This document shows, piece by piece, positions 20,559-64,000 of a stretch of DNA of 64,000 bases. Source of the stretch: Alphaproteobacteria bacterium. Lineage in GTDB: Bacteria > Pseudomonadota > Alphaproteobacteria > RF32 > CAG-239. A program made the translations under genes and the position numbers. Location of the stretch: positions 275 through 64,274 of the forward strand of contig SUUR01000007.1 in assembly GCA_015062435.1 (NCBI GenBank), written 5' to 3'. The notes below the pieces were generated by a model. The model searched no databases, was not told where the DNA came from, and was given only the letters and a program-made list of their open reading frames with translations. How positions within the stretch are numbered: position 1 is the first letter of the stretch; the number at the start of each line of letters is the position of its first letter.

Positions 20559-20568
20559 AGGTACATAT

Positions 20569-30396: not shown

Positions 30397-33300
30397 ATGG
30401 GGAAACATATGTCTAATAAAACCAATGTTGGCCATACAGCAGTATCGGCCGCCAATCTTCCGCAATTTATGAGAGAAACAACAGCTTCTGCCACCATAGA
30501 AGATAAACCATCATGGTTAAATAATAATTTGCATAAGCTGATGATTAGTGTCAGTGTTATTTGGTTTGCCATAGTTTTGATTTACATTACCCAGTTTTTC
30601 GGGTGGGATAATTTATTCTTGATGATGCCTGATGAATTTGGTGGTTTTTTAGCCGGTATAACATTGCCTTTGGCAATAATATGGGTAGTTATGGCCTATA
30701 TAGATAGAGGCACATCATTTAAGCAAGAAGCAAAATTTTTGCGAGCATATATGAATCAACTTGTTTATCCCGAAGATGGTGCGCCACAAACAGCCAAAGC
30801 AATGGCAGATGCAATTCGTTCTCAGGTTGTTGAGCTTCAACAGGTTAGTAAGCTTGCAACAGAGAAAACCGCACAAATAAAAGATGAAATCAGGGAAAAC
30901 ATCACTGAATTTTCAAAACTTATTTCTACATTAGATACATATTCCTCCAAAACCATAGTTGAGCTTAGTGATGGTGTAAAATATCTGACACAAAATTTTG
31001 AAAATATCACCAACAAAGCTCAACAGTCAGCAGAAACATTTTCCGGTTTAAATCGTGAATTTGCTTCCGGAGCAACTGATATCGAGCAAAGTTTAAAACA
31101 ATTGTTTTCAAATTTATTGCCAAAGCTAAAAGAGATTAAAACATCTGCGGAATTATTGAATGACATTTCAAATAATTCCGATGCCAATATTAGTAAAGCC
31201 AATGAAACATTAAGAAAGTTTAATGAGCAAACATCTAATAATCTTCAGCAAATGTCAGAGATGTTGGTGCGCCACTCTCAAAATTTGAATCATATTTCTG
31301 AATTGGCTGTCAATAATTGTGACGTTCTCAAAAAAACAGTATCAACAGAGGTTGAAAAATTAGGAAATACTTTAGAACAACAATCCGTTAAATTGGAACA
31401 TGCAATTTCCGATAGCGGCAATATTATGCGTAGCAAGATAGATGAATTGAGTAAACATACTCAAAACAATATTAATGAAATAAATTCATATATTGCCAAA
31501 GGTATCACTTCTTTAGACGGAGAGCTAGACCGTCAAGTCAAGAAAATTGATACAGCTTTGAGCAAAAACAATCATGAGATGGTAAGTTTAATATCCTCAA
31601 TGGAGAAAAGTGCGGATAACATTAACAAAAAATTATCATCTAATGGTGATGTTTTAGCTCAAGAAATAGATAAACTCATGGTTAGGGGACGCAATCTGGA
31701 AGAGAGTGTTTCTATTCAGGTAAGTAACCTTGCAGATATTTCTTCACAAGCAATTATATCCATGCAAAAGGTTGATAAAGAATTGGAAGATAAAGTGTCT
31801 GCATTACAAAATAAAGCTTCAATCTCAGCCGAAGAAATAAATAATTACATAGACAGGATAGAACAACAAACGTCGGCTTTAAATAATCTTGGTGTAAATA
31901 TCAAAGAACAAACATCTAATATGGCTGATATATTTAAAAATCGCTATAATCTGCTCTCTGAGGCCACAACCGATATTGTAGAGCGTTTAGGTGTTATAAA
32001 TACTGAGATAGACAATACTTCAACGCATCTCTGCCAAAGTTCGGATAATGTTGTTCAATCTATTAACAATGCTGCGGATAACATGAATCGTTATGCCAAT
32101 ACTCTTACGGAAACAACTTCTGTGGTTGTAGCCCAATCTCAAGTTAGTGAAGCTGCTTTGGCACAACAACACAAGAATATTACAACCAGTGCTACTCGGG
32201 TTGAAGAAATTAAAGCAGATTTGCGCAAACAAATAGATGATTTATCAGCCGCATCATCTGAATTGCAAAATGATGCAACATTAGCTGTTGAGAAATTAAG
32301 AACCAACATATCCGCAATGCTCAGTTCATGCAATGATGTTATCAATAAGAGTAGAGCTATTAATGATAATTTGATTGAGCAAGCCAATATGTTTGATACT
32401 TCGGCCAATAGAACATTAGCTAAAGTAACTCAGTTTGAAAATGTGATGACGGTTCAAAATCAAAATATTGATATTTTGGCACAAAACACTTCAGATAAGG
32501 TCTGTGAGATTGAAAATATTTTATCTCGCCAAAATAAAATTATAGAAGAAACCACAACCAAATCATTAGCATCATTCCGTAAAAATGCAGAGGACTTCAT
32601 CGCTCAAAATAAAGCTTTACATGAGATTTCTCGTAGCACGTCAGAGTATACATCAAGCGTTGCACAAGGGTTTGATGAAAAAGCTGCTTCATTAAATATT
32701 TTGTTCAAACAACAAGAAAATGAGTTTTATAATTTCTGTGATAAAATTTCTGACAATGCAGAAAAAATGGGAGAAGCTCTTAAACAACAAGTTAATATTA
32801 TTGAGCAAAGTGCGGATAAAGTATTTTCCAGAATGGTTATGCTTGAAGAAGATACATCACGCCACACGGAGGCCGTAGTAAATAGCAGTCATCGTTCAAT
32901 TGAAAGACTTGCTGAAGTTGAGGCTTTGGTCGGAAGCAAAAATGAACTTGTTAAAAAAATGGTTGATGAGTTTTGTGTCAGCATAGAAGATGTTTCTTCT
33001 AATTTACAAAAGCATGCATTAGATTTCAGTGCAGGAACCAAAAAATTGAATGAAGAAGGTCGACTGGCAGTTGAAAATATGAAAGATAATTGTAGTCAAC
33101 TTACAAAAACAGAAGAAAATTTAAATCAAGCAGCTTCAAATATCAGTAAGCTAATGAATGAACACATAAAAAATATTGATATTGCTGTCACTAAAGCAAG
33201 CAATCAACATCAAGAAATAAATAAGATGCTATCAGTTCAAACCAATAACCTAACCGAAAGTGCCAATACATTGGCCACACAAAGCAGACTTGCCGAAGCA

Positions 33301-39084: not shown

Positions 39085-40071
39085 TTATTTTTCTTGACAT
39101 CTTTTGATTCCTGCTAAACTTGAAGAATAATAGTAACACCAAGCAGAATCAGGCCATGGCGTTATTGTATTGTTTGAAATATTAGTGGAATAAGTATATC
39201 CTTGCAATACTTTATAGGTTGCAGTTCCGGGAAATGCATTACTATATTCGGTGATACCGGTAGGCATTTGTGGAGCTTCTCCTGATAAGCCATCGCATTG
39301 TTTAAAAGCAGATGTCATACTTGTTACCGTAGGTGGAATTTCAGGAATATTACCGGTTAGCCCTGTACACCCTTCAAAAGCTGAATTCATACTGGTAATA
39401 CCACTCGGAAGTTCAGGAATATCCCCTGTTAAACCGGAACACCCTGAAAATAAACCATCAATAGATGTTATTGACGGTGGAAGTTTCAATTTAGGTATAC
39501 TTCCGACTGTTGAAACATCACATAATTTAGGTAATTCCTCAAGACTTTGTAATGTAATCGCTTTTACCGATGATATTGCAACATTAGACGCTACCAGATC
39601 TCCATTATATCTTCCATGATATCCTTTAAATTTTTTGAAATTTCCACACAATCTATATTCCATATCACTATTAACAGCAAGAGATCCGCAACCTATTGTT
39701 GTTTCTACTTGTGAATTTATGACTGTTTGTTTTTTGACTATTTGTTTATAATTTGTTCCGCAATCCACAATTGCTTCTGTTACACCTTCAAGATGAAATA
39801 CGACAGATATGGATGAACTCCAACCATTATGCAGTGTAAAAATTAAAGCATCATCTTCTTTACATAAGTAGTCGTCAACCAAACTACTTCCGCCACTACA
39901 ATAAACTTTTGAACTATCAAACGGACAAGTCAGGTATTCGATATCACCACAATCATCGACAGATTTGGTATATCCCAAGCTTTCACAAGATGGCGGTTGT
40001 TGGCATGTTTGAGCGGAGACTGTTGAGGTATAAATCGTGCTTGCAAGCAATGATAAAAGCAATTTTTTCAT
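39085..40071 (-). CDS. secreted Cys-rich protein with BspA/LRR_5-like C-terminal repeats
   Basis: Signal peptide MKKLLLSLLASTIYTSTVSA. Its N-terminal Cys module is shared with the upstream gene. Three ~24-aa repeats span aa ~200-281: SITSIDGLFSGCSGLTGDIPELP / SGITSMNSAFEGCTGLTGNIPEIP / PTVTSMTSAFKQCDGLSGEAPQMP. The start overlaps the upstream stop (ATGA). Confidence 0.75.
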   Translation of the reverse strand: MKKLLLSLLASTIYTSTVSAQTCQQPPSCESLGYTKSVDDCGDIEYLTCPFDSSKVYCSGGSSLVDDYLCKEDDALIFTLHNGWSSSISVVFHLEGVTEAIVDCGTNYKQIVKKQTVINSQVETTIGCGSLAVNSDMEYRLCGNFKKFKGYHGRYNGDLVASNVAISSVKAITLQSLEELPKLCDVSTVGSIPKLKLPPSITSIDGLFSGCSGLTGDIPELPSGITSMNSAFEGCTGLTGNIPEIPPTVTSMTSAFKQCDGLSGEAPQMPTGITEYSNAFPGTATYKVLQGYTYSTNISNNTITPWPDSAWCYYYSSSLAGIKRCQEK

Positions 40072-40436
40072 AATAAGTCTCCTTTGAGTTTCTCGATGAT
40101 TGCATTAAGATTATAACCGCACCAGTAGTTGTCATAATCAATGTAAGTGACTTCACATTGGGCAAATTGATATTGAGTGGTATCTTCACAAGTTATTTCC
40201 AAACATGTGGCATTGGCGGGACATTCGGTTAAGGGATATTCGCTAAAGTCACAAGCCGGACAAAAGACTACGGATAAATCGAACGGGCAACGAACAATCT
40301 CTTTGCCGGCACACTCACTTTCGGTTTGAGTATATCCCATTTCAGCACAAGTAGGTGGAGTAACGCATGATGTTTGAGCCAAAGATATTGAAGTCGATAA
40401 CAATATCATAGCTATGATAAATATGTATAATTTCAT
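40068..40436 (-). CDS. small secreted Cys-rich protein (11 Cys in ~101 mature residues)
   Basis: Signal peptide ending SLA. The module SCVTPPTCAEMGYTQTESECAGKEIVRCPFDLSVVFC is followed by CDFSEYPLT...TTQYQFAQCEVTY. GGAG lies 7 nt upstream of the ATG. Confidence 0.7.
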   Translation of the reverse strand: MKLYIFIIAMILLSTSISLAQTSCVTPPTCAEMGYTQTESECAGKEIVRCPFDLSVVFCPACDFSEYPLTECPANATCLEITCEDTTQYQFAQCEVTYIDYDNYWCGYNLNAIIEKLKGDLL

Positions 40437-44162: not shown

Positions 44163-46685
44163 TTATGCTGACATTTTTTTAGGGCTACAAGCCTTACGAG
44201 TTGCTTTTTTTACTTTAGTTTCCGATCCGCAAGGTTTTATGTTCCAGATATTTTTGGCATATTCCATGACTGCTCTGTCAGAGGTGAATTTTCCAATCCT
44301 TGCAACATTAAGAATTGCTTTCTGAGCCCAAATATCTTTATTGAGAAAGTCTTCTTCAACTTCTTCCATCTTTTGGTCAAAAGCTTCCAGATCAGACAAT
44401 ACAAAGAAGTAGTCCCGATTAACTAATTCTTCAAATATCGGTTTAAACAACAACACATAATCTTTCTCGCAAAACATATTAGAATTTACTGCATTTAATA
44501 TACGTTTAATATAGTTATTTTTTTCATAAATATCTCTGGGATTATAACTATTACGTTTTGCTTGAACTTCTTTCTCTGTCAATCCGAACAGATAGAAGTT
44601 TTCTTCACCAACTTCTTCTCTTATTTCAATATTTGCCCCATCAAGGGTACCAATAGTCAAAGCACCGTTAAGAGCAAATTTCATATTACCTGTACCGCTT
44701 GCTTCAAAACCGGCTGTTGAAGATTGTACGCTCAAATCCGCAGCAGGAATAAGAGTTTCAGCCAAAGATACTTTGTAGTCAGGAATAAATACCACTTTGA
44801 GCATATCGCTGACTCTCGGATCATTGTTTACAACATCGGCAACATTGTTAATCAGCTTAATGATTAATTTGGCAAAGTTATAAGAAGGCGCTGCTTTACC
44901 TGCAAAGATATACGTTTTAGGGCATGCCGGACGCACATTATCTTTGATAATATCCAAATAATCACCGATTACTTGTAATATTGTCATTAATTGACGTTTA
45001 TATTCATGAATACGTTTTGCATGAACAATGAACATACTTTCAGGTCTTATCATCACTCCTGTTGATTTAAACACTTTTTGTGCCAATCTCTTTTTATTTT
45101 CTGTTTTAACATCTTGGAAGGATTTGATAAATTTCTTATCATCAACAAATTCTTCCAATTGTCTTAAATCATTTAATTCCGTAATCCAAGATTCACCGAT
45201 TTTAGAACTGATTAAATCAGAAAGAGCCGTATTTGCGTGTAATAACCAACGTCTTGGAGTAATACCGTTTGTTACGTTTGAGAATTTCTCAGGCCATAAC
45301 TCATAAAATTCCGGAACCAATTTTGTTTTTATCAAATCAGAGTGAATTTGAGCAACTCCGTTCACAGAAAAAGATCCGACAATGGAGAGATTGGCCATTC
45401 TGATGATTTGATTATCTCCTTCACCGAATACAATCGCCACTTTATCCAATTTAGCTCTGTCATCACCAAACTTTGATCGGGCAAATTCCATAAAACGACG
45501 ATTAATTTCATATATGATTTGCAAATGTCTCGGCAACATTCTTCCGATAATTCTTGCCGGCCATGTTTCCAAAGCTTCTGGCAATAAAGTATGATTGGTA
45601 TACGCAAAAACTTTAGAAGTGATATCCCAAGCGTCGTTCCATTCTTGTCCGTATACATCAACCAATAACCGCATCATTTCAGCAATTGCGATAGCAGGGT
45701 GAGTATCATTGAGTTGGATAACAACGCTTTCCGGTAATTTGCTGAAATCTTCACTTTTTTCCAAGAAACGCCTTAAAATATCTTGAATAGCACAAGAGGC
45801 AAAGAAGTATTGCTGTTTGAGGCGCAATTCTTTTCCGGATTCTACTGCATCTGAAGGATATAATACTTTTGAAATTGTTTCTGTTTCAATTTTTTCTTTC
45901 ATAGCTTCAATATATCCGCCTTCATTAAAGATATGTATATCCAATTCATCATCGGTTTTTGCAGAGAACAGGCGCAAATAATTTACAGATTTACCGCTAT
46001 ATCCGACAATCGGAAAATCAAAAGGAATACCATATAGAGTCTTGGTATTCATCCACACAAAACTTTTTTGTCCGTTAGGATTATCCAATACTTCGACATC
46101 GCCATATATAGGGATTTTAACCACTCTGTCATGACGAGCAAATTGCCATGGAGAATTTTCAGCCAACCAACTGTCGGCTTGCTCAATTTGATAGCCGTTT
46201 TCAAATTTTTGTTTGAATAAACCGAACTTATAGTCAATCCCATATCCGAAACCGGCCAATCCCAGTGAAGCCATAGAGTCCAAATAACATGCAGCCAGTC
46301 TTCCCAAGCCTCCGTTGCCTAGTGCCGGATCATATTCGGCATCAAAAATTTCTTCCAAAGAAAAATTCGGTAATCCGTCAATTTTAATATCTTTAATAAT
46401 TTCAAACAATCCCAAGTTATGAAGATTATTTTCCAGTGATCTGCCGATAAGGTATTCTATTGATAAATAATACACACGTTTTGAGTTGCATTGATTGTAT
46501 CTGGCGATTGTTTCATACATTTTATCCATGGCAAATTCACGTACTGCCAAAGATATAGATTGAAGAGCCTCTTCTTTGGTAATTTCGCAAGTACGCTTAC
46601 CGATAAAATATTTGATGTAATGTTCAATAGAAAGCTTTAATCTTGCACGATCAATTTCACTAATAATTGTAGAACCTTTATTCAC
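44163..46685 (-). CDS. glgP: glycogen/maltodextrin phosphorylase
   Basis: 840 aa GT35 enzyme. PLP-site EASGTGNMKFALNGALTIGTLDGANIEI and GNGGLGRLAACYLDS. Confidence 0.95.
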   Translation of the reverse strand: MNKGSTIISEIDRARLKLSIEHYIKYFIGKRTCEITKEEALQSISLAVREFAMDKMYETIARYNQCNSKRVYYLSIEYLIGRSLENNLHNLGLFEIIKDIKIDGLPNFSLEEIFDAEYDPALGNGGLGRLAACYLDSMASLGLAGFGYGIDYKFGLFKQKFENGYQIEQADSWLAENSPWQFARHDRVVKIPIYGDVEVLDNPNGQKSFVWMNTKTLYGIPFDFPIVGYSGKSVNYLRLFSAKTDDELDIHIFNEGGYIEAMKEKIETETISKVLYPSDAVESGKELRLKQQYFFASCAIQDILRRFLEKSEDFSKLPESVVIQLNDTHPAIAIAEMMRLLVDVYGQEWNDAWDITSKVFAYTNHTLLPEALETWPARIIGRMLPRHLQIIYEINRRFMEFARSKFGDDRAKLDKVAIVFGEGDNQIIRMANLSIVGSFSVNGVAQIHSDLIKTKLVPEFYELWPEKFSNVTNGITPRRWLLHANTALSDLISSKIGESWITELNDLRQLEEFVDDKKFIKSFQDVKTENKKRLAQKVFKSTGVMIRPESMFIVHAKRIHEYKRQLMTILQVIGDYLDIIKDNVRPACPKTYIFAGKAAPSYNFAKLIIKLINNVADVVNNDPRVSDMLKVVFIPDYKVSLAETLIPAADLSVQSSTAGFEASGTGNMKFALNGALTIGTLDGANIEIREEVGEENFYLFGLTEKEVQAKRNSYNPRDIYEKNNYIKRILNAVNSNMFCEKDYVLLFKPIFEELVNRDYFFVLSDLEAFDQKMEEVEEDFLNKDIWAQKAILNVARIGKFTSDRAVMEYAKNIWNIKPCGSETKVKKATRKACSPKKMSA

Positions 46686-52075: not shown

Positions 52076-52140
52076 AAAAAAGCGGTATTTAAATGAACTG
52101 TCCTCCAAAAATTTGGACAGTTCATAAAACCGCTTTTTTT
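52076..52140. terminator. two-tier bidirectional terminator (valS / flgL)
   Basis: Outer stem AAAAAAGCGGT (52076-86) / ACCGCTTTTTT (52129-39). Inner stem ATGAACTGTCC (52093-103) / GGACAGTTCAT (52115-25). The T-run reaches the flgL stop codon. Confidence 0.75.
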
Positions 52141-54074
52141 TAATCAAGATAATTAAGTAAAGACATATTCAAAGCATTTTGCAAAACTGAATAAGATGCT
52201 TCAAGATTATATTGAGCAAGAATAGCTTTTGCTGCAGCTTCAGTCTGGTCAACATTCTTAAGAGAGTCGATACTTGTTTGTAAGTTATTTTTCACAAGTG
52301 TCAGATTTTCATCATTGCTCTTTAGCAATACATAGTTAGCACTGAGTTTAGATGTTACAGCATATATACTGGAATTTGTACCTGAGTTAGCAGGTTCGCT
52401 ACTGTCATCAATACCACTTTGCATTAATTGCATAGCCGTATTTACAATATTTTTGGCCTTATTAACATCTATCAAGCCTTCAGCATTGGCAGGATTAGTT
52501 GTATCCACAACATTTCCCTGAGCGATTAAACCCATAGCTCTTATAATTTTTTCAAAACCGGCATCATTGGCAGTGATATCTAAAGTTATTGATTGATTTT
52601 CAGATATTCTGCGCTCAAGATTAAGGTCTCCACCGGTATAATAAGCCATCGTAGACATGCTCCAAGAACTTGAAGCAGCAACATATGTACTATCTGCTGA
52701 AAAATATCCCGGATCGGCTGTTACATTAAGACTTCCATCAGCATTCACACCTGTTACTTGCACTCTTGGGGCAACATTACTCCCCATATTATTCATTTCA
52801 ATTACTGTTCCGATAGGGTAAGATTTGCTGATAGTCACACCGGTCGGATCATCAATTGCCGGTTCATCAACAATATTATGTCCGTCAGTTTTTTCGAAAG
52901 TGATGGTTTTTCCATCAGCAGAAACAGATTTTACAACATAAGAATTATTATTGTTTGCAGTTCCGCTTAATATTAAAGTATCACCAGCTTGTATAGTATT
53001 AAAAGCTCCGTATTCTGTGGCATTAAGAGTGTTTTTATCGGCATCGAACGTAAGTTTTCCTGTTGTTGCCGGAGTAGCACTGATTGACTTTTCTAAAAAA
53101 CCGCCTTCGACATCGGGAGTTATTTTAAATTGATTTCCGCTTATTTTATCAAAAGTAATACCACCGGTTTGTTGAGCAGTTGTTGTTTTATTACATAAAT
53201 TTGCCGCACTGTTATCAGGAAATTTAATATTCACGCCATCATAAAACTCTTGAAACTCAGCCAAATTACTGAATGGAAAGTTGATTGGAGAAACAGTAGC
53301 ATCACCACCGCCGAATAAATACTTTCCGTTAGCAGATACATTGAGGGCATCAACCATCATTTGCAAAGATGTAAAAGCATAATTTTGCAATTCTGTCAGG
53401 TTATGAGCCTGATCTTGATTCATTGTATATGCTTCTCCGGTTTTAACACCGTTTGCAGATAAAATAGTAGATGTACCGTTAATTGTATAATATGGGAACT
53501 TAAACGTTTCTCCATCAAATTCAAATCCGGGATAATCGCCGGTAGGGTCTACTTTATCTTTAAGAGCTTGCATAACTTTTTCAGCATATCCCTCATTTCC
53601 TGAATCAGCAGCAATAGCAGATAAATCAATATTATTACCTGAACCGTCAACATTAGAAAAAGTATATTTTATACCATTTATGGTAATTGTTTTACCAACA
53701 TATGTATCTTCATTATTATCAGTAAAGGTAATTTCACCGCCTGTATAATCCGGAGTTAATGTTTTGGCATCACTTCCGGAAAAATTATTAAGCATTGCCT
53801 GAAAATCAATTGCTGTATCAGTAATGGCGTCCATTGCGGTACTCATAGTAGTTATTTCAATATCAAGCAATTTATTATTTTCTAAAAAATTATTTGTAAC
53901 ATTGTAAGATGCTTCTAAATTTACAATACTATAAGCAGACATTCCGTATCCGGAGTAGGTTGGAGCCTTTAATCCGGTAACGCTTTGAAAGTTATACAAT
54001 TCAAAAGTCTGCTTATTTTTAAGTGTTTGAGTAAGCAATCTCATATTTGTAGAATAAGTAGGAACTCTGGTCAT
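52140..54074 (-). CDS. flgL: flagellar hook-associated protein 3 (FlgL), unusually long
   Basis: Flagellin-type N-terminus (TNMRLLTQTLKNKQ...VTGLKAPTYSGYG) and C-terminus (AAAKAILAQYNLEASYSVLQNALNMSLLNYL). Lies directly downstream of flgK. At 644 aa it has a large Thr/Gly/Asn-rich central insert. Confidence 0.75.
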   Translation of the reverse strand: MTRVPTYSTNMRLLTQTLKNKQTFELYNFQSVTGLKAPTYSGYGMSAYSIVNLEASYNVTNNFLENNKLLDIEITTMSTAMDAITDTAIDFQAMLNNFSGSDAKTLTPDYTGGEITFTDNNEDTYVGKTITINGIKYTFSNVDGSGNNIDLSAIAADSGNEGYAEKVMQALKDKVDPTGDYPGFEFDGETFKFPYYTINGTSTILSANGVKTGEAYTMNQDQAHNLTELQNYAFTSLQMMVDALNVSANGKYLFGGGDATVSPINFPFSNLAEFQEFYDGVNIKFPDNSAANLCNKTTTAQQTGGITFDKISGNQFKITPDVEGGFLEKSISATPATTGKLTFDADKNTLNATEYGAFNTIQAGDTLILSGTANNNNSYVVKSVSADGKTITFEKTDGHNIVDEPAIDDPTGVTISKSYPIGTVIEMNNMGSNVAPRVQVTGVNADGSLNVTADPGYFSADSTYVAASSSWSMSTMAYYTGGDLNLERRISENQSITLDITANDAGFEKIIRAMGLIAQGNVVDTTNPANAEGLIDVNKAKNIVNTAMQLMQSGIDDSSEPANSGTNSSIYAVTSKLSANYVLLKSNDENLTLVKNNLQTSIDSLKNVDQTEAAAKAILAQYNLEASYSVLQNALNMSLLNYLD

Positions 54075-54085
54075 AATTTATCCTC

Positions 54086-56269
54086 CTATACAATATTCAG
54101 CAACATATCCAAAATTTCTTTGGAAGCCGTAAATGCTTGAGCGCAAGCTGCGTAACTTTGTTGGAATATAATCATTTGTCCCAATTCTTCATCAAGATCA
54201 ACTCCGCTGATTTGAGCTTCTTTAGTAGATATTGATTGCGTTAACGTTTGTTGATATTCAAAAGAATTTTGAGCATTACTTGTTTGAGATGCAATATTTC
54301 CGACAAAAGTAGCGGCATAACTTGCTAAATTTGTTTGAGTCTGAGCGATTGTGCCTGACTGTTTAAAGTTTTGTGATAGTGCAAAAACTTCCCCCATTTC
54401 GTTAGCTATTGAATTAGCTGCCGGACTCAATACATATCTTCCGGTAGATTTATTAAATTCAGGAGCACCACCGGCAATCAAACTCGGGTTGGTTGTAATA
54501 TCTTGTCTTACTTTGATTTGTTGAGCAACACCTGCATTTGAAGGAGTTAGTCCCAAACGGCCTAAAAGGTTGTTTCCTTGTGTTTCTGAAATTTCTAATT
54601 GTCCGCCGTTTAGATTCTCTATTCTGAATACATAACCGCTTCCGTTTGGAACCAAAGAAGCCCTTATTGATCTGCTCAAAACCGGATCATCATTGATATT
54701 CTTTACAATTTGACTTAAACTGTCAGAAGGAGATATTGAAATAGTAGCATAATTAAGCCCGTATACTTCATCAGAAAAACTCCAAACAGTAGTTTGATTA
54801 ACACCCAAATTAGCATTCAGATTAACCACATTTGAGTCATAAATATAATCTCTGTTATCATCAACAAAAACATCATTTAACCCGAAGAAATCAGCGAAGC
54901 CTGCATAAGTTTGCCCATATATACCGTTAGCTCCGGCATCAAAAGCGATAACGGCATCTTTTTGTTCAGTTCCCGGAGTAGAAGACATGGTATCAATTAT
55001 AGATAAACCATATTCACTGTCACCGGTAGATATAATCAATTGCCCATCATTATTAAAATAAACTTCAGCTTGCGGTAAATTAGGTCCATTTGCGGAGCGC
55101 AACCAGTTTTGAATTGTCTGAGCCATATCATCAAGACTTCCTTGGGCAAAACCCAATTCACCTTTTAATGTTGTTGTTGCAAATTGTTCACCCTCAGGAG
55201 TAACAATCATCAAGCGAACATCTCCGCTCTCTATTTTAATATTTTGAACATAATTACCGTTATCATCTTGAAGAAATACTTTAGTTCCGGTAAGTGTTGA
55301 AGGCGTATTAGGATAGGCTGTTCCCCGGTTATGTACACTGTTTATGGTATCTTTAAGAGTACCTGAAAGTTCATCAAGTTGGCTTTGTAAAGATGGTAAA
55401 ATAACATCACGAACTTCGATTAATCCTTTTATCTCACCATTTTTGATATAACCTGTTATATCCTTGCCATCAACATAAATTCCTCCGATACCACCGCTGG
55501 CATAAGTAACTGTTGGGCTTGTTTTTGCTACGGCAGCATGAGAAAGTTTATGAGGATCACTATCCAAAAGAGTAATTCCGTTTGTTGTTTGTATAACAAT
55601 AGAACCGTTATCTCTTTTAAAATAGGAAATATCAATCATAGCGGAAAGTTCACGCAAAGCAGTATCACGTTGATCTTGTAAATCAGCAACACCATCATAG
55701 TTAAGCAATTCATATTTAACTAATTCTTCGTTGAGATGATCAATTGTATCCAATAATTTATTAATTTCTTCAACATTTTCGGTTATTTGTAAATCAGCAT
55801 CGCCACGCAAAACTTGAATTTCGGCAGAAACAGAGTTTAGTCGTGCGGTAAGGGTGGTTGCCTGATTTAAAAGATTATATCTGCCGGCAGAAGATGTAAC
55901 ATCGGTAGCCAAGCTTTCAAAAGCAGTTTGCAGATCCGAAACATTTGCAGAAATAGAATTATTACCTTGAGGAGTACCAAGAGTAACTTCTATTTTGCTC
56001 AAATAATCATTTTTTGCAGAATAATTGTTTGTTAAAGAGTTAGAAGATAAATAGCTTTTTAATAACCCTTCATCAACTTGTCTGGTAACATTTCCCAGCT
56101 CTACCCCCATACTTGAGCCGGCTCTGACCACACTATGTTGCTGAGCAGTTTTACGAGAATATCCTTCAGTATCAACATTTGATACATTTCTGCTTATGAT
56201 ATCAAGTTGCCCTTGAGCAGCTTTCATACCTGACAATGAAGTTGTCAAACTGGGAATTAAAGCCATCAC
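54086..56269 (-). CDS. flgK: flagellar hook-associated protein 1 (FlgK)
   Basis: N-terminal SLSGMKAAQGQLDIISRNVSNVDTEGYSRK and C-terminal GVDLDEELGQMIIFQQSYAACAQ. Confidence 0.9.
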   Translation of the reverse strand: MMALIPSLTTSLSGMKAAQGQLDIISRNVSNVDTEGYSRKTAQQHSVVRAGSSMGVELGNVTRQVDEGLLKSYLSSNSLTNNYSAKNDYLSKIEVTLGTPQGNNSISANVSDLQTAFESLATDVTSSAGRYNLLNQATTLTARLNSVSAEIQVLRGDADLQITENVEEINKLLDTIDHLNEELVKYELLNYDGVADLQDQRDTALRELSAMIDISYFKRDNGSIVIQTTNGITLLDSDPHKLSHAAVAKTSPTVTYASGGIGGIYVDGKDITGYIKNGEIKGLIEVRDVILPSLQSQLDELSGTLKDTINSVHNRGTAYPNTPSTLTGTKVFLQDDNGNYVQNIKIESGDVRLMIVTPEGEQFATTTLKGELGFAQGSLDDMAQTIQNWLRSANGPNLPQAEVYFNNDGQLIISTGDSEYGLSIIDTMSSTPGTEQKDAVIAFDAGANGIYGQTYAGFADFFGLNDVFVDDNRDYIYDSNVVNLNANLGVNQTTVWSFSDEVYGLNYATISISPSDSLSQIVKNINDDPVLSRSIRASLVPNGSGYVFRIENLNGGQLEISETQGNNLLGRLGLTPSNAGVAQQIKVRQDITTNPSLIAGGAPEFNKSTGRYVLSPAANSIANEMGEVFALSQNFKQSGTIAQTQTNLASYAATFVGNIASQTSNAQNSFEYQQTLTQSISTKEAQISGVDLDEELGQMIIFQQSYAACAQAFTASKEILDMLLNIV

Positions 56270-56276
56270 ACACCTC

Positions 56277-56729
56277 CTACAAAGTTCTGTTTATGGCTAA
56301 CGCATTCTTGTTATTATCCAACGGAGAATATGTTCCGTGCGCACCATAAGAAGTTGCATTATTGTTGTTTGTTACTTTTGCAATGTTAATGATAGTATTC
56401 ATAACATTTTTGCTTGTTTCCATTCTGGTTTTAAGTAGCAGTTCATTCTCTTTCAAGATTTCATCTAATTCACGAGAAGCTTCTTTGAGTTCAGCCTTAA
56501 GATTTAAATCTGCCATTTTTAAGGATTCCGCATTTTTAATAAAGAATGCGCTTAAAGACCGATATGCTGAAACAGCTTTCATTTTTTGCTCATATAATTT
56601 TCCGACTTCCTCAGCATCAAATTTTTCTAAGGCTGTATTTTCCAATTCCAATATTTCGATAAACCCGTCAATAATATCGAGCAAATCAGCAAGTTTATTG
56701 TTAATTTCATTTACAGATAAATTTTCCAT
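56277..56729 (-). CDS. FlgN/FlbY-like flagellar protein
   Basis: 150-aa helical protein (LELENTALEKFDAEEVGKLYEQK...) in the position that flbY occupies after cheL in the Caulobacter flgI operon. I chose the ATG at 56729, preceded by AAGGAG, over the track start at 56801, which would overlap the upstream gene. Confidence 0.5.
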   Translation of the reverse strand: MENLSVNEINNKLADLLDIIDGFIEILELENTALEKFDAEEVGKLYEQKMKAVSAYRSLSAFFIKNAESLKMADLNLKAELKEASRELDEILKENELLLKTRMETSKNVMNTIINIAKVTNNNNATSYGAHGTYSPLDNNKNALAINRTL

Positions 56730-56740
56730 AGCACTTCTCC

Positions 56741-57073
56741 TTATCCGAGAAACTCTACTGAGTTTTGTTCTTGCATTTCCAAGATTGAACGCATTACCCA
56801 ATCTTTAACGCCGACACCGCCGACTTTAGCCATTTCTTTACCGTATTGGTCTAATAACATTGATCTGTATATTTTTTCAGCATTTCCTCCGCCAAACATT
56901 CCGTTTGTAGAAACACCATCAAACATGCTTTCCATCATTTTTGTTAGAAAAAATGCTTCAAAATCTTCAGCTGATTTTTCTGCTTTTTCTAAATTATTAT
57001 TAACTTTAGGTGCTTTGGTTGCCGAAAGCATATCAGCTTCAAACATGGCCATATTTGTTAACAAATCAGTCAT
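56741..57073 (-). CDS. cheL: flagellar rod-binding protein (FlgJ N-domain-like / CheL)
   Basis: 110 aa. AEDFEAFFLTKMMESMF...GGGNAEKIYRSMLLDQYGKEMAK is the Rod-binding (FlgJ N-terminal) signature. The start overlaps the flgI stop. Confidence 0.8.
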   Translation of the reverse strand: MTDLLTNMAMFEADMLSATKAPKVNNNLEKAEKSAEDFEAFFLTKMMESMFDGVSTNGMFGGGNAEKIYRSMLLDQYGKEMAKVGGVGVKDWVMRSILEMQEQNSVEFLG

Positions 57074-58197
57074 CAGATCACCTCGATTTCAGCCTGTAAA
57101 GCACCGCTTGCTTTGATTGCTTGCAATATACTGATTAAATCACGTGGAGTAACACCTAAAGAATTCAACCCGTCAACTAATTCCTGTAAATTTATACCGG
57201 TATCCAATACCGTAAGTTTAGCATCAGTATCTTCATCAATTTCAATTACAGATGAATTGGTTACGACTGTTTCTCCATTTGTAAAAGGAAGAGGTTGAGA
57301 AACCAACGGAATATCAGTTATTTTTATGGTTAAATTTCCTTGAGCGATTGCCAAGCGATTAATTTTTACTTCTTTACCGATAACTACAATACCTGATCCT
57401 TCATCGATTACTACTTTAGCCAGTTGATCCGGTTGAATTTGCAATTGTTCTACTTTTGTCATAAGATCCACAATCTTACCTTTATAAGATGCCGGAACCT
57501 TCAAAACTATTGTAGCTGAATCAATAGCTTTGGCAGCAGGAGTACCAAGCATTGCATTAACTGCATCAGAAACTCTGCGAGCAGTTGTAAAATCCGGATT
57601 TCTTAAAGCGATGGTAATACTGTTTAAGCTTTCCAATTTAAAAGGAATTTCATTTTCGATAATAGCCCCACTGGGAATACGTCCTGATGTCGGAACACCT
57701 TTAGAAACAGATTGTGTGGCACTGCTGGCACTCACACCACCAACAGCAATTTGCCCTTGAGCAACAGCATAAACTGTTCCGTCTGCACCGCTTAACGGAG
57801 TAACTAACAATGTACCGCCTTGGAGATTTTTAGCATCACCTAGAGCACTGACCATGACATCAATCTTACTTCCCTGACGTGCAAAAGGAGGTAAATTTGC
57901 AGTAACCATAACTGCAGCAACGTTTTTAGACTTAATTTGGCCTCCACGTGCGTTGATACCGATATTATCAAGCATAGAAATCAGGCTTTCTCTGGTAAAG
58001 TCCACAGATTTAATATTATCACCGGTACCGTTCAATCCCACAACCAATCCGTAACCTATTAATTGGTTGTCTCTAATTCCCTCAAAGTCGGCAATATCTT
58101 TAATACGAGACACGGCATTTGCTTCTGATGATTGGAATATCAGAGCCAAAGAAACAAGAGCCAAACTGGCTAATTTTATGGTTTTTGCACGAAACAT
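57073..58197 (-). CDS. flgI: flagellar P-ring protein FlgI
   Basis: Signal peptide, then RIKDIADFEGIRDNQLIGYGLVVGLNGTGD, 374 aa. Confidence 0.95.
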   Translation of the reverse strand: MFRAKTIKLASLALVSLALIFQSSEANAVSRIKDIADFEGIRDNQLIGYGLVVGLNGTGDNIKSVDFTRESLISMLDNIGINARGGQIKSKNVAAVMVTANLPPFARQGSKIDVMVSALGDAKNLQGGTLLVTPLSGADGTVYAVAQGQIAVGGVSASSATQSVSKGVPTSGRIPSGAIIENEIPFKLESLNSITIALRNPDFTTARRVSDAVNAMLGTPAAKAIDSATIVLKVPASYKGKIVDLMTKVEQLQIQPDQLAKVVIDEGSGIVVIGKEVKINRLAIAQGNLTIKITDIPLVSQPLPFTNGETVVTNSSVIEIDEDTDAKLTVLDTGINLQELVDGLNSLGVTPRDLISILQAIKASGALQAEIEVI

Positions 58198-59793: not shown

Positions 59794-60264
59794 ATGAAAG
59801 TCATAATATTTATTGCAATGTTGTTATTGGGAAACATGGTTCAAGCCAAACCCACAGACTTATACCTGTTTTATAATTCCGGTAGCAATAATATATCAGA
59901 AATAAACATTACGGCAGATGAATTGGCGAAGGTTTTTGATGATCTTTTCGGGCCGGCATCTGATGAACTACCTCAAGAGGTTAAGTATGCTGATTTTTAT
60001 GTGTCAAAATTTGCCGATGGCGCCTATGTTTTTATTTTAAAAGCACCATTTAATTGCGGACAACTTGGCTGTAATACCAAAACATATTACAGAGACCATG
60101 AAGGTGATTTGATACCGGAAGGAGGTTTGTTTCCGGTTAAGTGTGTGGAACACGGTATAGATAAGTTGATATGCACCAAAGGCGGATATAAACCGGAACT
60201 TAAACAAGATCCCAAACCCAAGAAAAGGGGGCCGGTTCATTATCCGGCACCTGTAACAGAATAG
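59794..60264 (+). CDS. hypothetical secreted protein
   Basis: Signal peptide MKVIIFIAMLLLGNMVQA. Contains NCGQLGCNTKTYY and a basic, Pro-rich tail. No family recognised. Confidence 0.55.
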   Translation: MKVIIFIAMLLLGNMVQAKPTDLYLFYNSGSNNISEINITADELAKVFDDLFGPASDELPQEVKYADFYVSKFADGAYVFILKAPFNCGQLGCNTKTYYRDHEGDLIPEGGLFPVKCVEHGIDKLICTKGGYKPELKQDPKPKKRGPVHYPAPVTE

Positions 60265-60271
60265 GGTAATC

Positions 60272-61525
60272 ATGTGGGCAAATAAAAGTAGTTTTTATCA
60301 TATTTACCCATTAGGTTTTTGTGGCTGTACTCCAAATAATGACTACACTTGCCCGCCAACTTCAAGTATTCTCAAAGTATATGATTGGATACCGCATATT
60401 AAATCTCTGGGGTGTAATGCGGTTTATTTTGGACCGGTGTTTGAATCGGTAGCACATGGGTATGATACAAAAGACTATTTTAAGATAGATTGTCGATTGG
60501 GAGATAATCAAGATTTTAAGGCGCTGGTATCCAAACTTCATTCTTGTGATATAAAAGTTGTCTTAGATGGGGTGTTTAACCATGTCGGACGAGATTTTTT
60601 TGCTTTTGAAGATGTAAAACATTATAAGGCATCATCTCAATATTGCTCATGGTTTAAGCTTAATTTTAACCATAATAATCGTTACAATGACGGATTTTGT
60701 TATGAGGGGTGGGACGGTTGTGAAGATTTAGTTAAATTGAATTTGACCAATCCGGAGGTGAAAGAATATTTACTGAGCGCAGTTGCATATTGGATAGATG
60801 AATTTGATATTGATGGATTGCGTTTAGACGTTGCTCATTATCTCACTCCCAGTTTTATACATGAATTAAGAAGTATGTGCTTATCCAGAAAGTCAGATTT
60901 TTGGCTGTTAGGAGAAATGGTGTTTGGCAATTATAATCGCTTGGTAAATCCGGGAATGCTAGATAGTTGCACAAACTATGAATTATACAAAGCTTTATAT
61001 TCATCTTGTAATGATGGTAATTTACATGAACTTTCACATACACTAAACCGCCAATTCGGAGCAAATGGAATATATCGAGGTCTTAATTTATATAGTTTTC
61101 TGGATAATCATGATGTTTCTCGTATTGCTTCCGTTATCAAAAATCCTCTTCGCCTGAAACCTCTTTACGGTCTTTTGTATACATTACCGGGAATTGCATC
61201 TGTATACTATGGTAGTGAGTGGGGCGCAACCGGAGTGAGAGAGCGTAGCGACTCGGAAGTAAGGAACAGTTTTGATGCTCCGCAAACAACAGACTTAACC
61301 ACTCACATTTCTTGGTGGACAAATTTCCGAAACAACTCAAAAATATTATCAAACGGGCAATATCAAGAGCTTGAAGTTCGCAAAGAATTGTTATTTTTCA
61401 AGCGTTACATTGGGGATGAGGAGCTTTATTTTGGAGTGAATATTGGGGCAGAACCTCAGGAAATTTGCTATAAAAATCACAATATAAGTATTCCTGCATA
61501 TTCAATAGAAATAATAAATTTTTGA
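60272..61525 (+). CDS. GH13 alpha-amylase-family glycoside hydrolase (cytoplasmic)
   Basis: GH13 regions DGVFNHVG, GLRLDVAHYL, LLGEMV, FLDNHD. No signal peptide. Lies 7 nt downstream of the preceding ORF. Confidence 0.85.
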   Translation: MWANKSSFYHIYPLGFCGCTPNNDYTCPPTSSILKVYDWIPHIKSLGCNAVYFGPVFESVAHGYDTKDYFKIDCRLGDNQDFKALVSKLHSCDIKVVLDGVFNHVGRDFFAFEDVKHYKASSQYCSWFKLNFNHNNRYNDGFCYEGWDGCEDLVKLNLTNPEVKEYLLSAVAYWIDEFDIDGLRLDVAHYLTPSFIHELRSMCLSRKSDFWLLGEMVFGNYNRLVNPGMLDSCTNYELYKALYSSCNDGNLHELSHTLNRQFGANGIYRGLNLYSFLDNHDVSRIASVIKNPLRLKPLYGLLYTLPGIASVYYGSEWGATGVRERSDSEVRNSFDAPQTTDLTTHISWWTNFRNNSKILSNGQYQELEVRKELLFFKRYIGDEELYFGVNIGAEPQEICYKNHNISIPAYSIEIINF

Positions 61526-61651
61526 CAAATATTAAAAAAATCTAAAAAAAGATTATATTTTTCTTGATTTTAAAATATTTTTTGCTATATTAAACAAAAA
61601 TTAGCGAAAATTTACAAAACGTATTTCAACTCCAAAATAAGGATTAAAATT

Positions 61652-62191
61652 ATGAAAAAGTTTTTAGTATTAACATCAGTAAGCTTGATTTCCGCATGCA
61701 GTTGCATGGATGAAGTTACTCTTTTTGATAATGAACCTGTTGTAGAAGAAAGAGTTCAGGCTCGTCCTCAGAATTGTGATTATTTTGATGGTCAAACATG
61801 TTACCGTTATGTACACCGTGTTCGCCAACAGCCGGTAATCCGTTATCGTGAACCGATGGTTGCATATCAAGCTCCGGTAGTGTCATCACAATCTTGCAAT
61901 TCTTGCAATAAGTGTTCTGTATCTCAAGAGACAAAAACTTGTGAAGACAGCATTCATGAAACCAGAGAACCGGTTGAAGTAATATACAAAAAAACCACAT
62001 ATAAGACTGTATACCAACCGCAAACAACAACATCTGTAAGCTATGAGAGAGTTCCCTATACAACAGCTACACAAGCAATAGAAACCAGAGTTGTTTCAGA
62101 TCCTATTACAATTGTATCTCCGGCTCAAGCTCAGGTAGAAGTTATAACTCCTGTTAATGCCGAAGAAGAAATTCTCCTCAATGTCAAGTAA
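61652..62191 (+). CDS. hypothetical lipoprotein
   Basis: Lipobox LISAC. Gln/Thr/Val-rich with a small CNSCNKC cluster. No family recognised. Confidence 0.55.
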   Translation: MKKFLVLTSVSLISACSCMDEVTLFDNEPVVEERVQARPQNCDYFDGQTCYRYVHRVRQQPVIRYREPMVAYQAPVVSSQSCNSCNKCSVSQETKTCEDSIHETREPVEVIYKKTTYKTVYQPQTTTSVSYERVPYTTATQAIETRVVSDPITIVSPAQAQVEVITPVNAEEEILLNVK

Positions 62192-62210
62192 TCAACTTTG
62201 ACAATCCCCA

Positions 62211-62245
62211 AAAAACTCCTGCTTCCCCAAGCCGGAGTTTTTTTG
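62211..62245 (+). terminator. rho-independent terminator of the lipoprotein gene
   Basis: ACTCC-t-GCTT-cccc-AAGC-c-GGAGT followed by TTTTTTT. Confidence 0.7.
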
Positions 62246-62252
62246 TACTTAA

Positions 62253-62295
62253 AGCAATAAAAAGCAAAGGTCACTTTGATAAGTGGCCTTTGCTT
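62253..62295 (-). terminator. terminator of the 561-aa Cys-rich gene
   Basis: AAGCAAAGG-t-CACTT-tgat-AAGTG-g-CCTTTGCTT, followed on the minus strand by UUUAUUGCUUU. Confidence 0.6.
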
Positions 62296-62307
62296 GATGA
62301 TTATGTA

Positions 62308-63993
62308 TTAAGGTCTGTCAAAACAATTTTCTCTGGTTGTCGGGTTTATACAAGTTCCGTTAATTAATTTACAACCGCCGCCGGTACAACCTGTTAGTAA
62401 GTAATAGGTTGACCCGTTACAAGAACATTCTTTATAATTTCCTTTTTCATTGGGGGTTTGGGTTAATTTACTTACAGAAGTTTGAAGTTCATCTGCGCAG
62501 TAAGATGGGCAATCTGAGATGGATTCATTGTTATTGCTACACTGCTTCTCCCATAGATTATCAGGTATACACCCATTTCCGTTGCAGTCCCATTTAAATC
62601 CATCCGGGCAACGACATTTTGCATAATCCCTTGAACATTCACAGTATTCTTTTATGGCACGTTTGTCATTACAGATTGGGTCATCATCTATATGACTATA
62701 GCCAACACATGATTTAGAACAGTCTTCATAGCACTCTCTGGCATCACCTTCATATCCGTCCTCACATTTTAAGAATTTATATTTGGTAACGTCACCACAA
62801 TTCATTGAATCATACTCTGCATGAGCAATTTTATCAGATGCGGATAGTGTGTATTCACCAAAGTTGCAACATTCTTTACATCTATCCTGACACGGGAAAG
62901 GTTGAGATATTTTACAAACATCACAATTTTTATCTTCCACATCTATACATGGATCTATTTTTATACACCCTCTGGCATTACCTTCATATCCGTCTTCACA
63001 TTTTAAGAATTTATATTTGGTAACACCGGTTCCGTTACAGGTATAGCTATCATATACGGCATGTTCTATCTTATCTGTTGCAGATAACTGATATTTGCTA
63101 AAATCACAACAATTCTTACAATATCCGTTACAAGGACTCAAATGATAATCTTGACAACCGTCATTACAAGTTAAACGTTCAATATTCTCACATGGATCAT
63201 CATTAGTATCGGTATCTTCCTCTGGACATGGAGTGGTGTTCTCTCCATATTTACATCCTGTTTTCTTATATTTGGTTGTGTCATCACCACATCCCGGAGT
63301 ACAACTTTCATACGTTGCATTAGAATCACTTTCGGATGTTAACGTATAACCCGAACAATCTCTTGGCGTACAAGTGTTACATACTTCACACTTACTTGGG
63401 CATTGAGAATAATATGTCATACAACCCAAAGTTCCACATTGTTTGTCCTCTAATCCTGTACATGGGTCAGAATTACATTCTTTACATTTACTTGAGCATT
63501 GAGAATAATATGTCTTACAACCTAAATCTCCACATTGTTTATCCTCTAATCCTGTACATGGGTCAGAATTACATTCTTTACATTTAGTTGAGCATTGAGA
63601 ATAATATGTCTTACAATCCAAATCTCCACATTGTTTATCCTCTAATCCTGTACATGGGTCAGAATTACATTCTTTACATTTACTTGGGCATTGAGAATAA
63701 TATGTCATACACCCCAAAGTTCCGCATTGTTTATCCTCTAATCCTGTACATGAGTCAGAATTACATACTTCGCATTTACTTGAGCATTGAGCATAAGATT
63801 GTTTACACCCCAAATCTCCGCAGTCTAAGCCGGTCAATCCCTCACAAGGATCTTCATCTTCTTTCATAGGTTCACAATCGGTACCTTGCGCATTAAGTGT
63901 ATAATCATCAAAGCATTTTGTTATTTTATAATAAACCATTCCGTCACAATCTTCGCATGTACTGTATTGGGCGTATTGAGGCATTGTATTCAA
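62308..63993 (-). CDS. very Cys-rich modular repeat protein, probably 5'-truncated by the window edge
   Basis: 561 aa in the window with 78 Cys by my hand count. It has five 32-aa tandem repeats, two ~76-aa repeats, and CXXC motifs. The frame stays open upstream to position 64000 and no signal peptide is visible, so the real N-terminus is likely outside the window. Confidence 0.75.
   Translation of the reverse strand: MNTMPQYAQYSTCEDCDGMVYYKITKCFDDYTLNAQGTDCEPMKEDEDPCEGLTGLDCGDLGCKQSYAQCSSKCEVCNSDSCTGLEDKQCGTLGCMTYYSQCPSKCKECNSDPCTGLEDKQCGDLDCKTYYSQCSTKCKECNSDPCTGLEDKQCGDLGCKTYYSQCSSKCKECNSDPCTGLEDKQCGTLGCMTYYSQCPSKCEVCNTCTPRDCSGYTLTSESDSNATYESCTPGCGDDTTKYKKTGCKYGENTTPCPEEDTDTNDDPCENIERLTCNDGCQDYHLSPCNGYCKNCCDFSKYQLSATDKIEHAVYDSYTCNGTGVTKYKFLKCEDGYEGNARGCIKIDPCIDVEDKNCDVCKISQPFPCQDRCKECCNFGEYTLSASDKIAHAEYDSMNCGDVTKYKFLKCEDGYEGDARECYEDCSKSCVGYSHIDDDPICNDKRAIKEYCECSRDYAKCRCPDGFKWDCNGNGCIPDNLWEKQCSNNNESISDCPSYCADELQTSVSKLTQTPNEKGNYKECSCNGSTYYLLTGCTGGGCKLINGTCINPTTRENCFDRP
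62731..63198 (-). repeat. two ~76-aa protein-level repeats inside the Cys-rich gene
   Basis: DPCENIERLTCNDGCQDYHLSPCNGYCKNCCDFSKYQLSATDKIEHAVYDSYTCNGTGVTKYKFLKCEDGYEGNARGC versus DPCIDVEDKNCDVCKISQPFPCQDRCKECCNFGEYTLSASDKIAHAEYDSMNCGDVTKYKFLKCEDGYEGDAREC. Confidence 0.85.
63369..63848 (-). repeat. 5 x 96-bp in-frame tandem repeat
   Basis: Unit boundaries at 63369, 63465, 63561, 63657 and 63753. Units 63465-63560 and 63561-63656 differ at 3 of 96 positions by my alignment. The unit encodes CTGLEDKQCG[TD]L[GD]C[MK]TYYSQC[PS][ST]KCKECNSDP. Confidence 0.9.
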
Positions 63994-64000
63994 ACTATAA

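Follow-up and report, generated by a model that had tools for sequence, protein, structure and literature searches.

Proteins of the BspA leucine-rich repeat and DUF285 families (PF13306, LRR_5; PF03382) are linked to surface adhesion or ligand binding. In the DUF285 literature, the domain is described for surface and secreted proteins of mycoplasmas and for adhesion by Lactococcus lactis. The cysteine-rich gene at the right end of the 64,000-nucleotide stretch analysed here (the window; contig SUUR01000007.1 of an alphaproteobacterium) encodes a protein that is similar in kind, since both are secreted, multi-copy, variable proteins of host-associated bacteria. Many of its relatives bear BspA-type or DUF285 domains C-terminal to a shared leader and a stalk built from two small cysteine modules, here called R and Y. 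The protein of the window, by contrast, has neither LRR_5 nor DUF285, and R, Y and the YWLPDY leader lie outside the described families.

Other exported, cysteine-rich proteins of bacteria, among them OmcA and OmcB of Chlamydia, the TIGR02232 repeat of Myxococcus, and the YTV proteins of planctomycetes, are thought to be stabilised by disulfides. The present protein differs from these in the sequences of its modules and matches no NCBIfam or Pfam family; no sign of intermolecular cross-linking was found in it. Its predicted design, strings of hairpin modules of 30-50 residues with 2-4 disulfides each that form an elongated rod, is shared with tandem EGF modules (Pvs25/Pfs25, MSP1-19), TNFR, furin-like repeats, and the Entamoeba Gal/GalNAc lectin, but none of these gives a significant match, and the cysteines are spaced differently (C-x12-C-x6-C-x3-C plus an optional pair in R; 5-8 Cys in Y). 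The likeness to the variable multi-gene family of Giardia VSPs (PF03302) lies in a cysteine content of ~12-14%, the presence of CXXC motifs, and a secreted ectodomain, whereas the absence of a Pfam match, a C-terminal transmembrane helix and a CRGKA tail, the count of 10 CXXC motifs among 99 Cys, and the bacterial distribution set the protein apart. CysRReps, the secreted cysteine-rich repeats of Neocallimastix and other eukaryotes, have the spacing Cx6-9Cx5-7Cx8-11Cx7-8CC (bioRxiv 10.64898/2026.06.07.730663). An identity with CysRReps was rejected, because this spacing fits neither R nor Y, and no homology is indicated.

The overall kind of protein, a variable, repetitive, secreted bacterial family, is already known; the R and Y modules are undescribed. 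No match to these modules, to the leader motif or to the family as a whole exists in Pfam, NCBIfam, PHROGs or the PDB. On balance, we read the gene product as a modular protein of the stalk or adhesin-like type that is exported, stapled by disulfides and variable in repeat number from strain to strain.

Module architecture and leader of the cysteine-rich protein

The cysteine-rich open reading frame (ORF) at 62308..63993 (-) remains open to the window edge. Its upstream codons, TAT and AGT, contain no stop, so that the ORF is partial, as had been claimed from the sequence at the outset (the original prediction), and the TTG listed as its start is an artefact. A count confirmed the reported 78 Cys in 561 residues (~14%), which correspond to 13.9% of the 563 window codons; the median cysteine content of window ORFs of at least 200 aa is 0.9%. 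Hidden Markov models (HMMs) of R and Y, initiated with seed copies and then refined iteratively against all fetched proteins and six-frame ORFs, resolve the window part of the protein as Y-R5-Y-R-Y-(R)-Y. The features of the gene are listed below, with independent E-values (iE) of the HMM matches and, where given, the predicted local distance difference test (pLDDT) scores of AlphaFold2 (AF2) models.

62308..64000 (-): partial coding sequence, the C-terminal 563 codons plus the stop at 62308-62310, of a ~768-aa secreted cysteine-rich protein
Beyond the window edge: the first ~207 codons of the gene, based on the full 768-aa ORF of contig L003
63886..63999 (-): Y module 1, truncated at the window edge (…YAQYSTCEDCDGMVYYKITKCFDDYTLNAQ); Y HMM positions 9-48, iE 1.9e-10
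63373..63852 (-): five tandem R modules, each of 32 aa (96 bp) with 6 Cys and of the form DPCTGLEDKQCGDLGCKTYYSQCSSKCKECNS; R HMM iE 1.8e-10 to 4.4e-13
63238..63372 (-): Y module 2 (CTPRDCSGYTLTSESDSNATYESCTPGCGDDTTKYKKTGCKYGEN); Y HMM iE 1.4e-15, AF2 pLDDT 84-90
63109..63198 (-): divergent R module (DPCENIERLTCNDGCQDYHLSPCNGYCKNC), the opening half of the first 80-aa R+Y unit; R HMM iE 3e-7
62965..63111 (-): Y module 3 (CCDFSKYQLSATDKIEHAVYDSYTCNGTGVTKYKFLKCEDGYEGNARGC); Y HMM iE 5.9e-12, pLDDT 82-91
62869..62955 (-): degenerate R module (DPCIDVEDKNCDVCKISQPFPCQDRCKEC), the opening half of the second R+Y unit; window allele below the HMM threshold
62731..62871 (-): Y module 4 (CCNFGEYTLSASDKIAHAEYDSMNCGDVTKYKFLKCEDGYEGDAREC); Y HMM iE 2e-13, pLDDT 87-91
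62311..62730 (-): C-terminal tail, 140 aa with 18 Cys; matched in orthologues of the cysteine-rich gene only

The R module (~31 aa) follows the pattern D[NP]C-x12-GC-x2-Y[YW]-x-[DEQ]C-[PS][ST]KC, with four core Cys and an optional pair at columns 12 and 30, whereas the Y module (~50 aa) follows C-x4-C-x2-Y-x-L…N-A…C..GCG….KYK…C..GY…..C, with 5-8 Cys. The optional cysteines are gained and lost together, a coupling expected of disulfide partners. Both positions of the R pair are occupied in 51 instances, neither in 138, and one only in 30 (p=2e-23); in Y, columns 14/20 (p=1.5e-20) and columns 6/23 (p=7e-11) co-occur likewise. By hhalign, R and Y show no kinship to each other (probability 0.4%).

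Tandem Repeats Finder places the R array at 63377..63819, with a period of 96 bp, 4.6 copies, 90% matches and a score of 702, and all Cys codons are kept between the copies. Two internally repeated antisense ORFs opposite the array, at 63336-63587 (+; 83 aa) and 63588-63869 (+; 93 aa), were rejected as genes and regarded as by-products of the 96-bp tandem repeat. The two R+Y units recur with an 80-aa period and share 58% identity across 78 aa (E 2e-32). The R HMM detects the degenerate R module in the allele of contig L003 (iE 3.3e-4). As to the tail, none of the listed relatives has a best-scoring stretch that reaches it, as all of these end by residue 604 of the 736-aa query. It is weakly Y-like (10.5 bits), and in the AF2 model its last ~45 residues adopt a Y-type four-strand pattern (strands at modelled residues 343-374, pLDDT 76-78).

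All architectural elements listed in the original prediction were found on checking. The fragment at the window edge is a truncated Y module, the five 32-aa repeats with 6 Cys each are recovered by both Tandem Repeats Finder and the R HMM, and the CSGYTLTS...KYKKTGC element is a Y module (iE 1.4e-15). Other details needed refinement. The claim of at least three kinds of cysteine modules holds for the modules but not for their number, which becomes two recurrent kinds plus the tail; the two repeats of ~76 aa exist but are R+Y units of slightly longer period; and the C-terminal region does contain 18 Cys but does not end in 'GCTGGGCKLINGTC', which is followed by 13 more residues and one more Cys.

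The missing start was recovered by looking up the neighbouring 179-aa protein (61652..62191) by its exact sequence, which led to six metagenome contigs that share the gene order Mur ligase, 156-aa protein, alpha-amylase, 179-aa protein, and the cysteine-rich gene on the opposite strand. The flanks of these contigs are 99.4-100% identical to the window. Contig L003, which is 99.4% identical over 60127..64000, carries a complete ORF of 768 aa with 99 Cys; that of contig L002 is complete with 672 aa. Upstream of its ATG, L003 has a promoter-like site (TTGACG, 17 nt, TATTAT, with TG) and a ribosome-binding site, GGGAGA. A disrupted upstream frame, which the original prediction had named as a sign of a pseudogene, is contradicted for the near-identical contigs by their intact full-length ORFs; the gene is intact in close relatives, and nothing points to a pseudogene.

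The full-length protein consists of a signal peptide, the motif GVYWLPDY, two N-terminal modules conserved in the family, the series RRY-R5-Y-R-Y-R-Y, and the 140-aa tail, and ends in …NPTTRENCFDRP. Its leader, MFVVRYMLLILSLCLFSINTVNA followed by GVYWLPDY…, is a typical Sec signal peptide with an AXA-type cleavage site. The advice to recover the true N-terminus and to look for a signal peptide or lipobox thus has its answer in L002 and L003, which give a signal peptide and no lipobox: the pattern [LVI][ASTVI][GAS]C does not occur at the leader end, the LSLC at residues 11-14 departs from it, and the Cys of this LSLC is missing from most relatives. Besides the signal peptide, the full-length protein has no hydrophobic stretch and no C-terminal membrane anchor. 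The mature protein comprises 745 aa with an even number of cysteines (98); its pI is 4.4, and its net charge is close to -60. N-glycosylation sequons occur about as often as expected (6 vs 5.9 ± 2.2).

In all full-length family members, those of L002, L003, P0001 and P0002 among them, the predicted signal-peptidase site is directly followed by a motif of the form [KR/G][VT][YW][WYL]LP[DE][YF], whose L28 and P29 are invariant across the family. AF2 predicts the region around it (residues 24-51) to be disordered. Every motif-bearing protein among the fetched proteins, the loci and the window is a family member, in a sample that is biased because the loci were chosen by family. This LP-containing motif, with which the mature protein begins, may serve for sorting or docking.

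Two AF2 models are available for the modules. That of P0001, a 736-aa orthologue (26 family rows), has a mean pLDDT of 57, with 76-87 in the Y-R4-Y block and 82-86 in the first N-terminal module; that of window residues 178-563 (21 rows of module-containing segments) has a mean pLDDT of 70, with ~80-91 in the modules and <50 in the linkers. Each R is modelled as one beta-hairpin, and each Y as two hairpins, one long and one short. The predicted TM-scores are 0.23-0.31, and these low values, together with the low-pLDDT linkers, would fit a flexible rod of the beads-on-a-string type.

Family, distribution and strain variation

The family was defined by a Sec signal peptide directly before a YWLPDY-type motif and by one or more R modules before Y; the protein discussed here has both. 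A word-indexed search of 5.8 billion proteins returned 26 relatives, and an exhaustive phmmer search over 1.84 billion cluster representatives returned no more than 81 (E<=1e-3), so that relatives are few. When one genome of each GTDB species was scanned by pattern and the hits were confirmed by tblastn, 50 loci emerged, all of them in metagenome-assembled genomes (MAGs) of uncultured Alphaproteobacteria or of organisms named 'proteobacterium'. The sources named in titles are gut or faecal, namely the Hadza human gut, roe-deer caecum, and 'Candidatus Scatocola faecigallinarum'. Several genomes carry 6-9 family loci, often at contig ends, a position typical of repeated gene families that break assemblies. 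A phage origin was dropped, because a scan of viral contigs found no relative.

The leader, the N-terminal modules and an R…R-Y core are common to the family members, which diverge C-terminal to the core. Among 97 members, Pfam detects DUF285 in 13, LRR_5 in 6, Lcl_C in 4, PKD in 4, and EGF_MSP1_1 in a single one (7e-5), with no model covering R or Y; the tails of some members match no Pfam family. One member is named 'BspA family leucine-rich repeat surface protein' by NCBI, and headless members of ~290-300 aa that consist of the stalk only also exist. In the neighbourhoods of the 50 loci, no secretion, sorting or immunity gene recurs, and the recurrent neighbours are the family itself and its overlapping-frame ORFs. 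The gene just upstream of the cysteine-rich gene, past the right edge of the window (L003:4628-4720, L002:5094-5228), is another cysteine-rich family member, so that the two form a tandem pair. The upstream member terminates with …SGNSCVAFSSCSCSGYGSASNEECNAEKHVIIEYCPCNRNYANC, which resembles the start of the tail of its neighbour (…CVGYSH…IKEYCECSRDYAKC).

Searches for described relatives of the modules were negative. The protein matches no NCBIfam family at E<=1, including the Myxococcus cysteine-rich repeat TIGR02232, and nothing in PHROGs, and a strong match to a described bacterial Cys-repeat family, which had been expected to remove its novelty, was found in neither Pfam nor NCBIfam. PF18088 scored 21.5 bits on an R module, with a cut-off of 27 and no passing domain, and was taken as a chance match. 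Sequence searches of the PDB with the full protein, the Y profile and the R profile gave nothing significant, the best being bromelain inhibitor VI (E 0.55).

The number of tandem R copies differs between contigs that are otherwise 99.4-100% identical: five in the window and L003, four in P0001, three in L001, and two in L002. The proteins of the window and L003 differ by 12 amino acids, 10 of which fall into one 10-residue patch inside the degenerate R module (residues 361-370 of the 561-aa ORF, counted from 0); the patch suggests a putative small conversion tract. In allele P0002, three Y modules take the place of the 140-aa tail.

A probable exported stalk and its alternatives

In the reading we favour, a very acidic protein of ~83 kDa (pI 4.4) would be exported by Sec, cut by signal peptidase I after VNA, and folded, under the oxidising conditions of the periplasm, as a long string of small beta-hairpin modules with two to four disulfide bonds each, or ~49 in all. 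Across a lineage-specific multi-copy family, the leader (signal peptide, then [KR]VYWLPDY) and the R/Y stalk would carry interchangeable C-terminal heads; in the protein of the window, further R/Y modules and the unique 18-Cys tail would occupy the head position. Its most likely role would be that of a protease-resistant stalk, adhesin or ligand-binding protein, surface-exposed or secreted, with a stalk length that would shift by gain or loss of the 96-bp repeat. We infer adhesion or ligand binding because of the head domains of the relatives and what is known of BspA-LRR and DUF285 proteins.

Several points weigh against this reading. The protein itself has no recognisable binding head, and neither an outer-membrane anchor nor a secretion-system signal nor a conserved partner gene was found for it. 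The differences in repeat number come from short-read assemblies, which can collapse repeats, and both AF2 models rest on shallow alignments (21-26 rows). The habitat is mostly anoxic, and there are no Dsb genes among the genes of the window. Export, disulfides and surface exposure are predictions from sequence.

A bolder form of the favoured reading, to which we would give a modest chance, holds that R and Y are two new disulfide-rich folds and the YWLPDY motif a new sorting or anchoring signal, which together would display a large and rapidly varying set of stalked binding proteins on the cell surface of gut Alphaproteobacteria, without a known secretion-system tag.

Among the distinct alternatives, the least unlikely is a structural envelope protein that is disulfide cross-linked between molecules and forms part of a proteinaceous wall or coat, in the manner of OmcA and OmcB of Chlamydia or the YTV proteins of planctomycetes. 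Its very high cysteine content, Sec export, the many paralogues per genome, and the headless stalk-only members would all agree with such a role. However, the even number of cysteines and their covariation within modules point to pairing inside the module, NCBIfam and Pfam (the Chlamydia outer-membrane protein families included) give no match at E<=1, and envelope functions of the usual Gram-negative type are encoded in the window (Mur ligase, PagP, TolC-like proteins, flagellar P-ring).

Slightly less likely still is a periplasmic or secreted, thiol-rich metal binder or redox buffer of the metallothionein type, in which the cysteines would serve as ligands. This would account for the 13-14% Cys, the ten CXXC motifs and the strongly negative charge, and an anoxic habitat makes disulfide formation less certain. 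Yet the modules are predicted to be beta-hairpin units with conserved aromatic and glycine residues, their cysteines are gained and lost in pairs, and no His-rich or metal-type Cys cluster motif stands out (His 0.9%). A spacer role is moreover suggested by relatives in which R/Y modules are joined to LRR, PKD and lectin-like heads.

A polymorphic secreted effector, with a conserved N-terminal delivery region and variable toxic or signalling C-terminal cassettes of which the 140-aa tail would be one, is improbable. The conservation of leader and stalk and the high variability of the C-termini, including an allele with a different C-terminal cassette, recall such systems, but the cassettes that could be identified are binding domains (LRR, DUF285, PKD, Lcl_C) rather than toxins, and the tail looks like further cysteine modules. 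Also, no conserved immunity-like gene lies downstream, where the neighbour is a convergent lipoprotein gene.

The horizontal acquisition of a eukaryotic surface protein of the EGF, furin-repeat or VSP type is largely refuted and correspondingly remote. The original prediction had remarked on a furin/EGF/VSP-like look, more typical of eukaryotes than of Alphaproteobacteria, and cysteine density and CXXC content do recall Giardia VSPs. The nearest Foldseek neighbours are also eukaryotic, though none is significant: Pvs25/Pfs25, TNFR1, the furin repeats of R-spondin, the Cys-rich domain of the calcium-sensing receptor, and the Entamoeba lectin. Neither AF2 model found a match at E<=1e-3 in the PDB, nor did the second model in BFVD; all neighbours have E >=0.045, probabilities <=0.30 and query-length TM-scores <=0.15. 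The best, the EGF tandem of Pvs25 (E 0.045, probability 0.18), is below the usual thresholds, in a comparison with models that are elongated and have flexible linkers; TNFR1 (1ext) has E 0.33 and probability 0.11, and R-spondin Fu1-Fu2 has E 1.4. Pfam detects no EGF (for example PF00008, PF07645, PF12946), furin-like (PF00757), VSP, GCC2_GCC3 (PF07699), TNFR (PF00020), LRR_5 or DUF285 domain in the protein at E<=1, PDB sequences do not match, and a membrane anchor is lacking. The base composition of the gene (GC 36.6%, GC3 24.3%) is native to the window, whose genes average 36.3 ± 1.7% and 26.8 ± 3.4%, so that there is no sign of a recent foreign origin, and all 50 loci belong to alphaproteobacterial or 'proteobacterium' MAGs. 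Contrary to the eukaryotic leaning of the original prediction, the family is indigenous to this bacterial lineage and resembles eukaryotic cysteine-rich ectodomains in general design only.

Least probable of all is a decaying repeat-rich pseudogene or chance ORF, which the startless window copy and the tendency of repeats to break assemblies might suggest but which is refuted for the orthologues by intact 672-768-aa ORFs with signal peptide, promoter-like site and ribosome-binding site in several independent metagenomes, by the retention of every Cys codon across the repeat copies, and by 26-81 homologous clusters. Both eukaryotic origin and pseudogene status are essentially excluded.

Genomic surroundings and biological meaning

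A second locus of the window encodes two further secreted proteins:

40068..40436 (-): gene for a secreted protein of 122 aa, comprising signal peptide, N-module (QTSC..PP.C..MGY…CPFD…C) and a single Y module; Y HMM iE 3.2e-12
39085..40071 (-): gene for a secreted protein of 328 aa that shares this N-module and whose C-terminal part is weakly BspA-LRR/DUF285-like

The module that had been noticed to recur between the 122-aa protein and the cysteine-rich gene is indeed a Y module. The 122-aa protein has four relatives, one of which is named as a hypothetical protein of Alphaproteobacteria. Its gene is overlapped by 4 bases by that of the 328-aa protein, which matches LRR_5 (E 0.0039) and DUF285 (E 0.25) below the cut-offs. 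A second secreted family shares the N-module, that is, a signal peptide followed by QTC..[AP]P.C..[LM]GY……C……CPFD.S…C, and differs in the C-terminal parts, which comprise Y (122 aa), the weak BspA-LRR/DUF285 part (328 aa), and the phage tail domain Collar (PF07484, E 2.9e-8; contig L007). At L007:6871-8067, an N-module gene directly follows a stalk-family gene, and at L057:104-1380, a DUF285/LRR_5 protein once more comes after the small one.

The window as a whole represents the ordinary chromosome of a flagellated Gram-negative bacterium with ~36% GC, and its genes include those for ParC (Gram-negative type), ValS, ThrRS, enolase, a DUF2497 protein, components of a resistance-nodulation-division (RND) efflux system, and PagP. 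The flagellar block at 52140-58197 (-) encodes FlgI, an FlgN-like protein, FlgK and an FlgL/flagellin-like protein of 644 aa. In combination with PagP (25487-26038), the RND pump and two TolC-like OEP genes, this block indicates a motile diderm host. That this host is an alphaproteobacterium, as proposed earlier, agrees with the DUF2497, ParC, PagP and flagellar genes and with relatives named 'Alphaproteobacteria bacterium'. A set of genes for glycogen and alpha-glucans, with GlgB, GlgX and MalQ adjacent to each other (18318-24784, +) GlgP elsewhere (44163-46685, -), and the GH13 gene described below, suggests a starch- or glycogen-using lifestyle. A 1397-aa protein (30397-34590, +) gives weak matches to ZorA of the anti-phage system Zorya (NF033914; E 1.6e-11, 43 bits vs a cut-off of 190) and to the ATG17-like coiled coil PF04108 (45.6 vs 43 bits) and may be a MotA/ZorA-like or long coiled-coil protein; its gene is followed by a 110-aa ORF without a family match.

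Two genes away from the cysteine-rich gene lies a gene of the GH13 alpha-amylase family (60272-61525, +), flanked by genes for small exported proteins of 156 aa (59794-60264, +) and 179 aa (61652-62191, +), whose positions are kept in all six contigs. The 156-aa protein carries a signal peptide; its 'CGQLGCNTKTYY' stretch is reminiscent of the R-module core but goes undetected by the R HMM. The 179-aa protein, the convergent downstream neighbour of the cysteine-rich gene, has a lipobox (LISAC) and an 'SCNSCNKCS' motif. Neither of the two matches Pfam or PHROGs, and no intrinsic terminator-like site is present between the convergent genes (62192..62307).

To our knowledge, gut Alphaproteobacteria of this type are represented by MAGs only, and their interaction with host or particles is unstudied. 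A multi-copy exported family with ~49 predicted disulfides, interchangeable adhesin-type heads and strain-variable repeats would provide them with plausible colonisation factors; if the family consists of ordinary repeat adhesins, the gain would be limited to the annotation of 'hypothetical proteins'. R and Y represent two small, so far uncharacterised disulfide-rich domains that are attractive as stable scaffolds, and their presence raises the question of how bacteria of a largely anoxic habitat fold disulfide-dense proteins. The conserved N-terminal motif is offered as a possible sorting signal, and the bolder reading, if true, would reveal a new surface-display system in barely studied gut bacteria.

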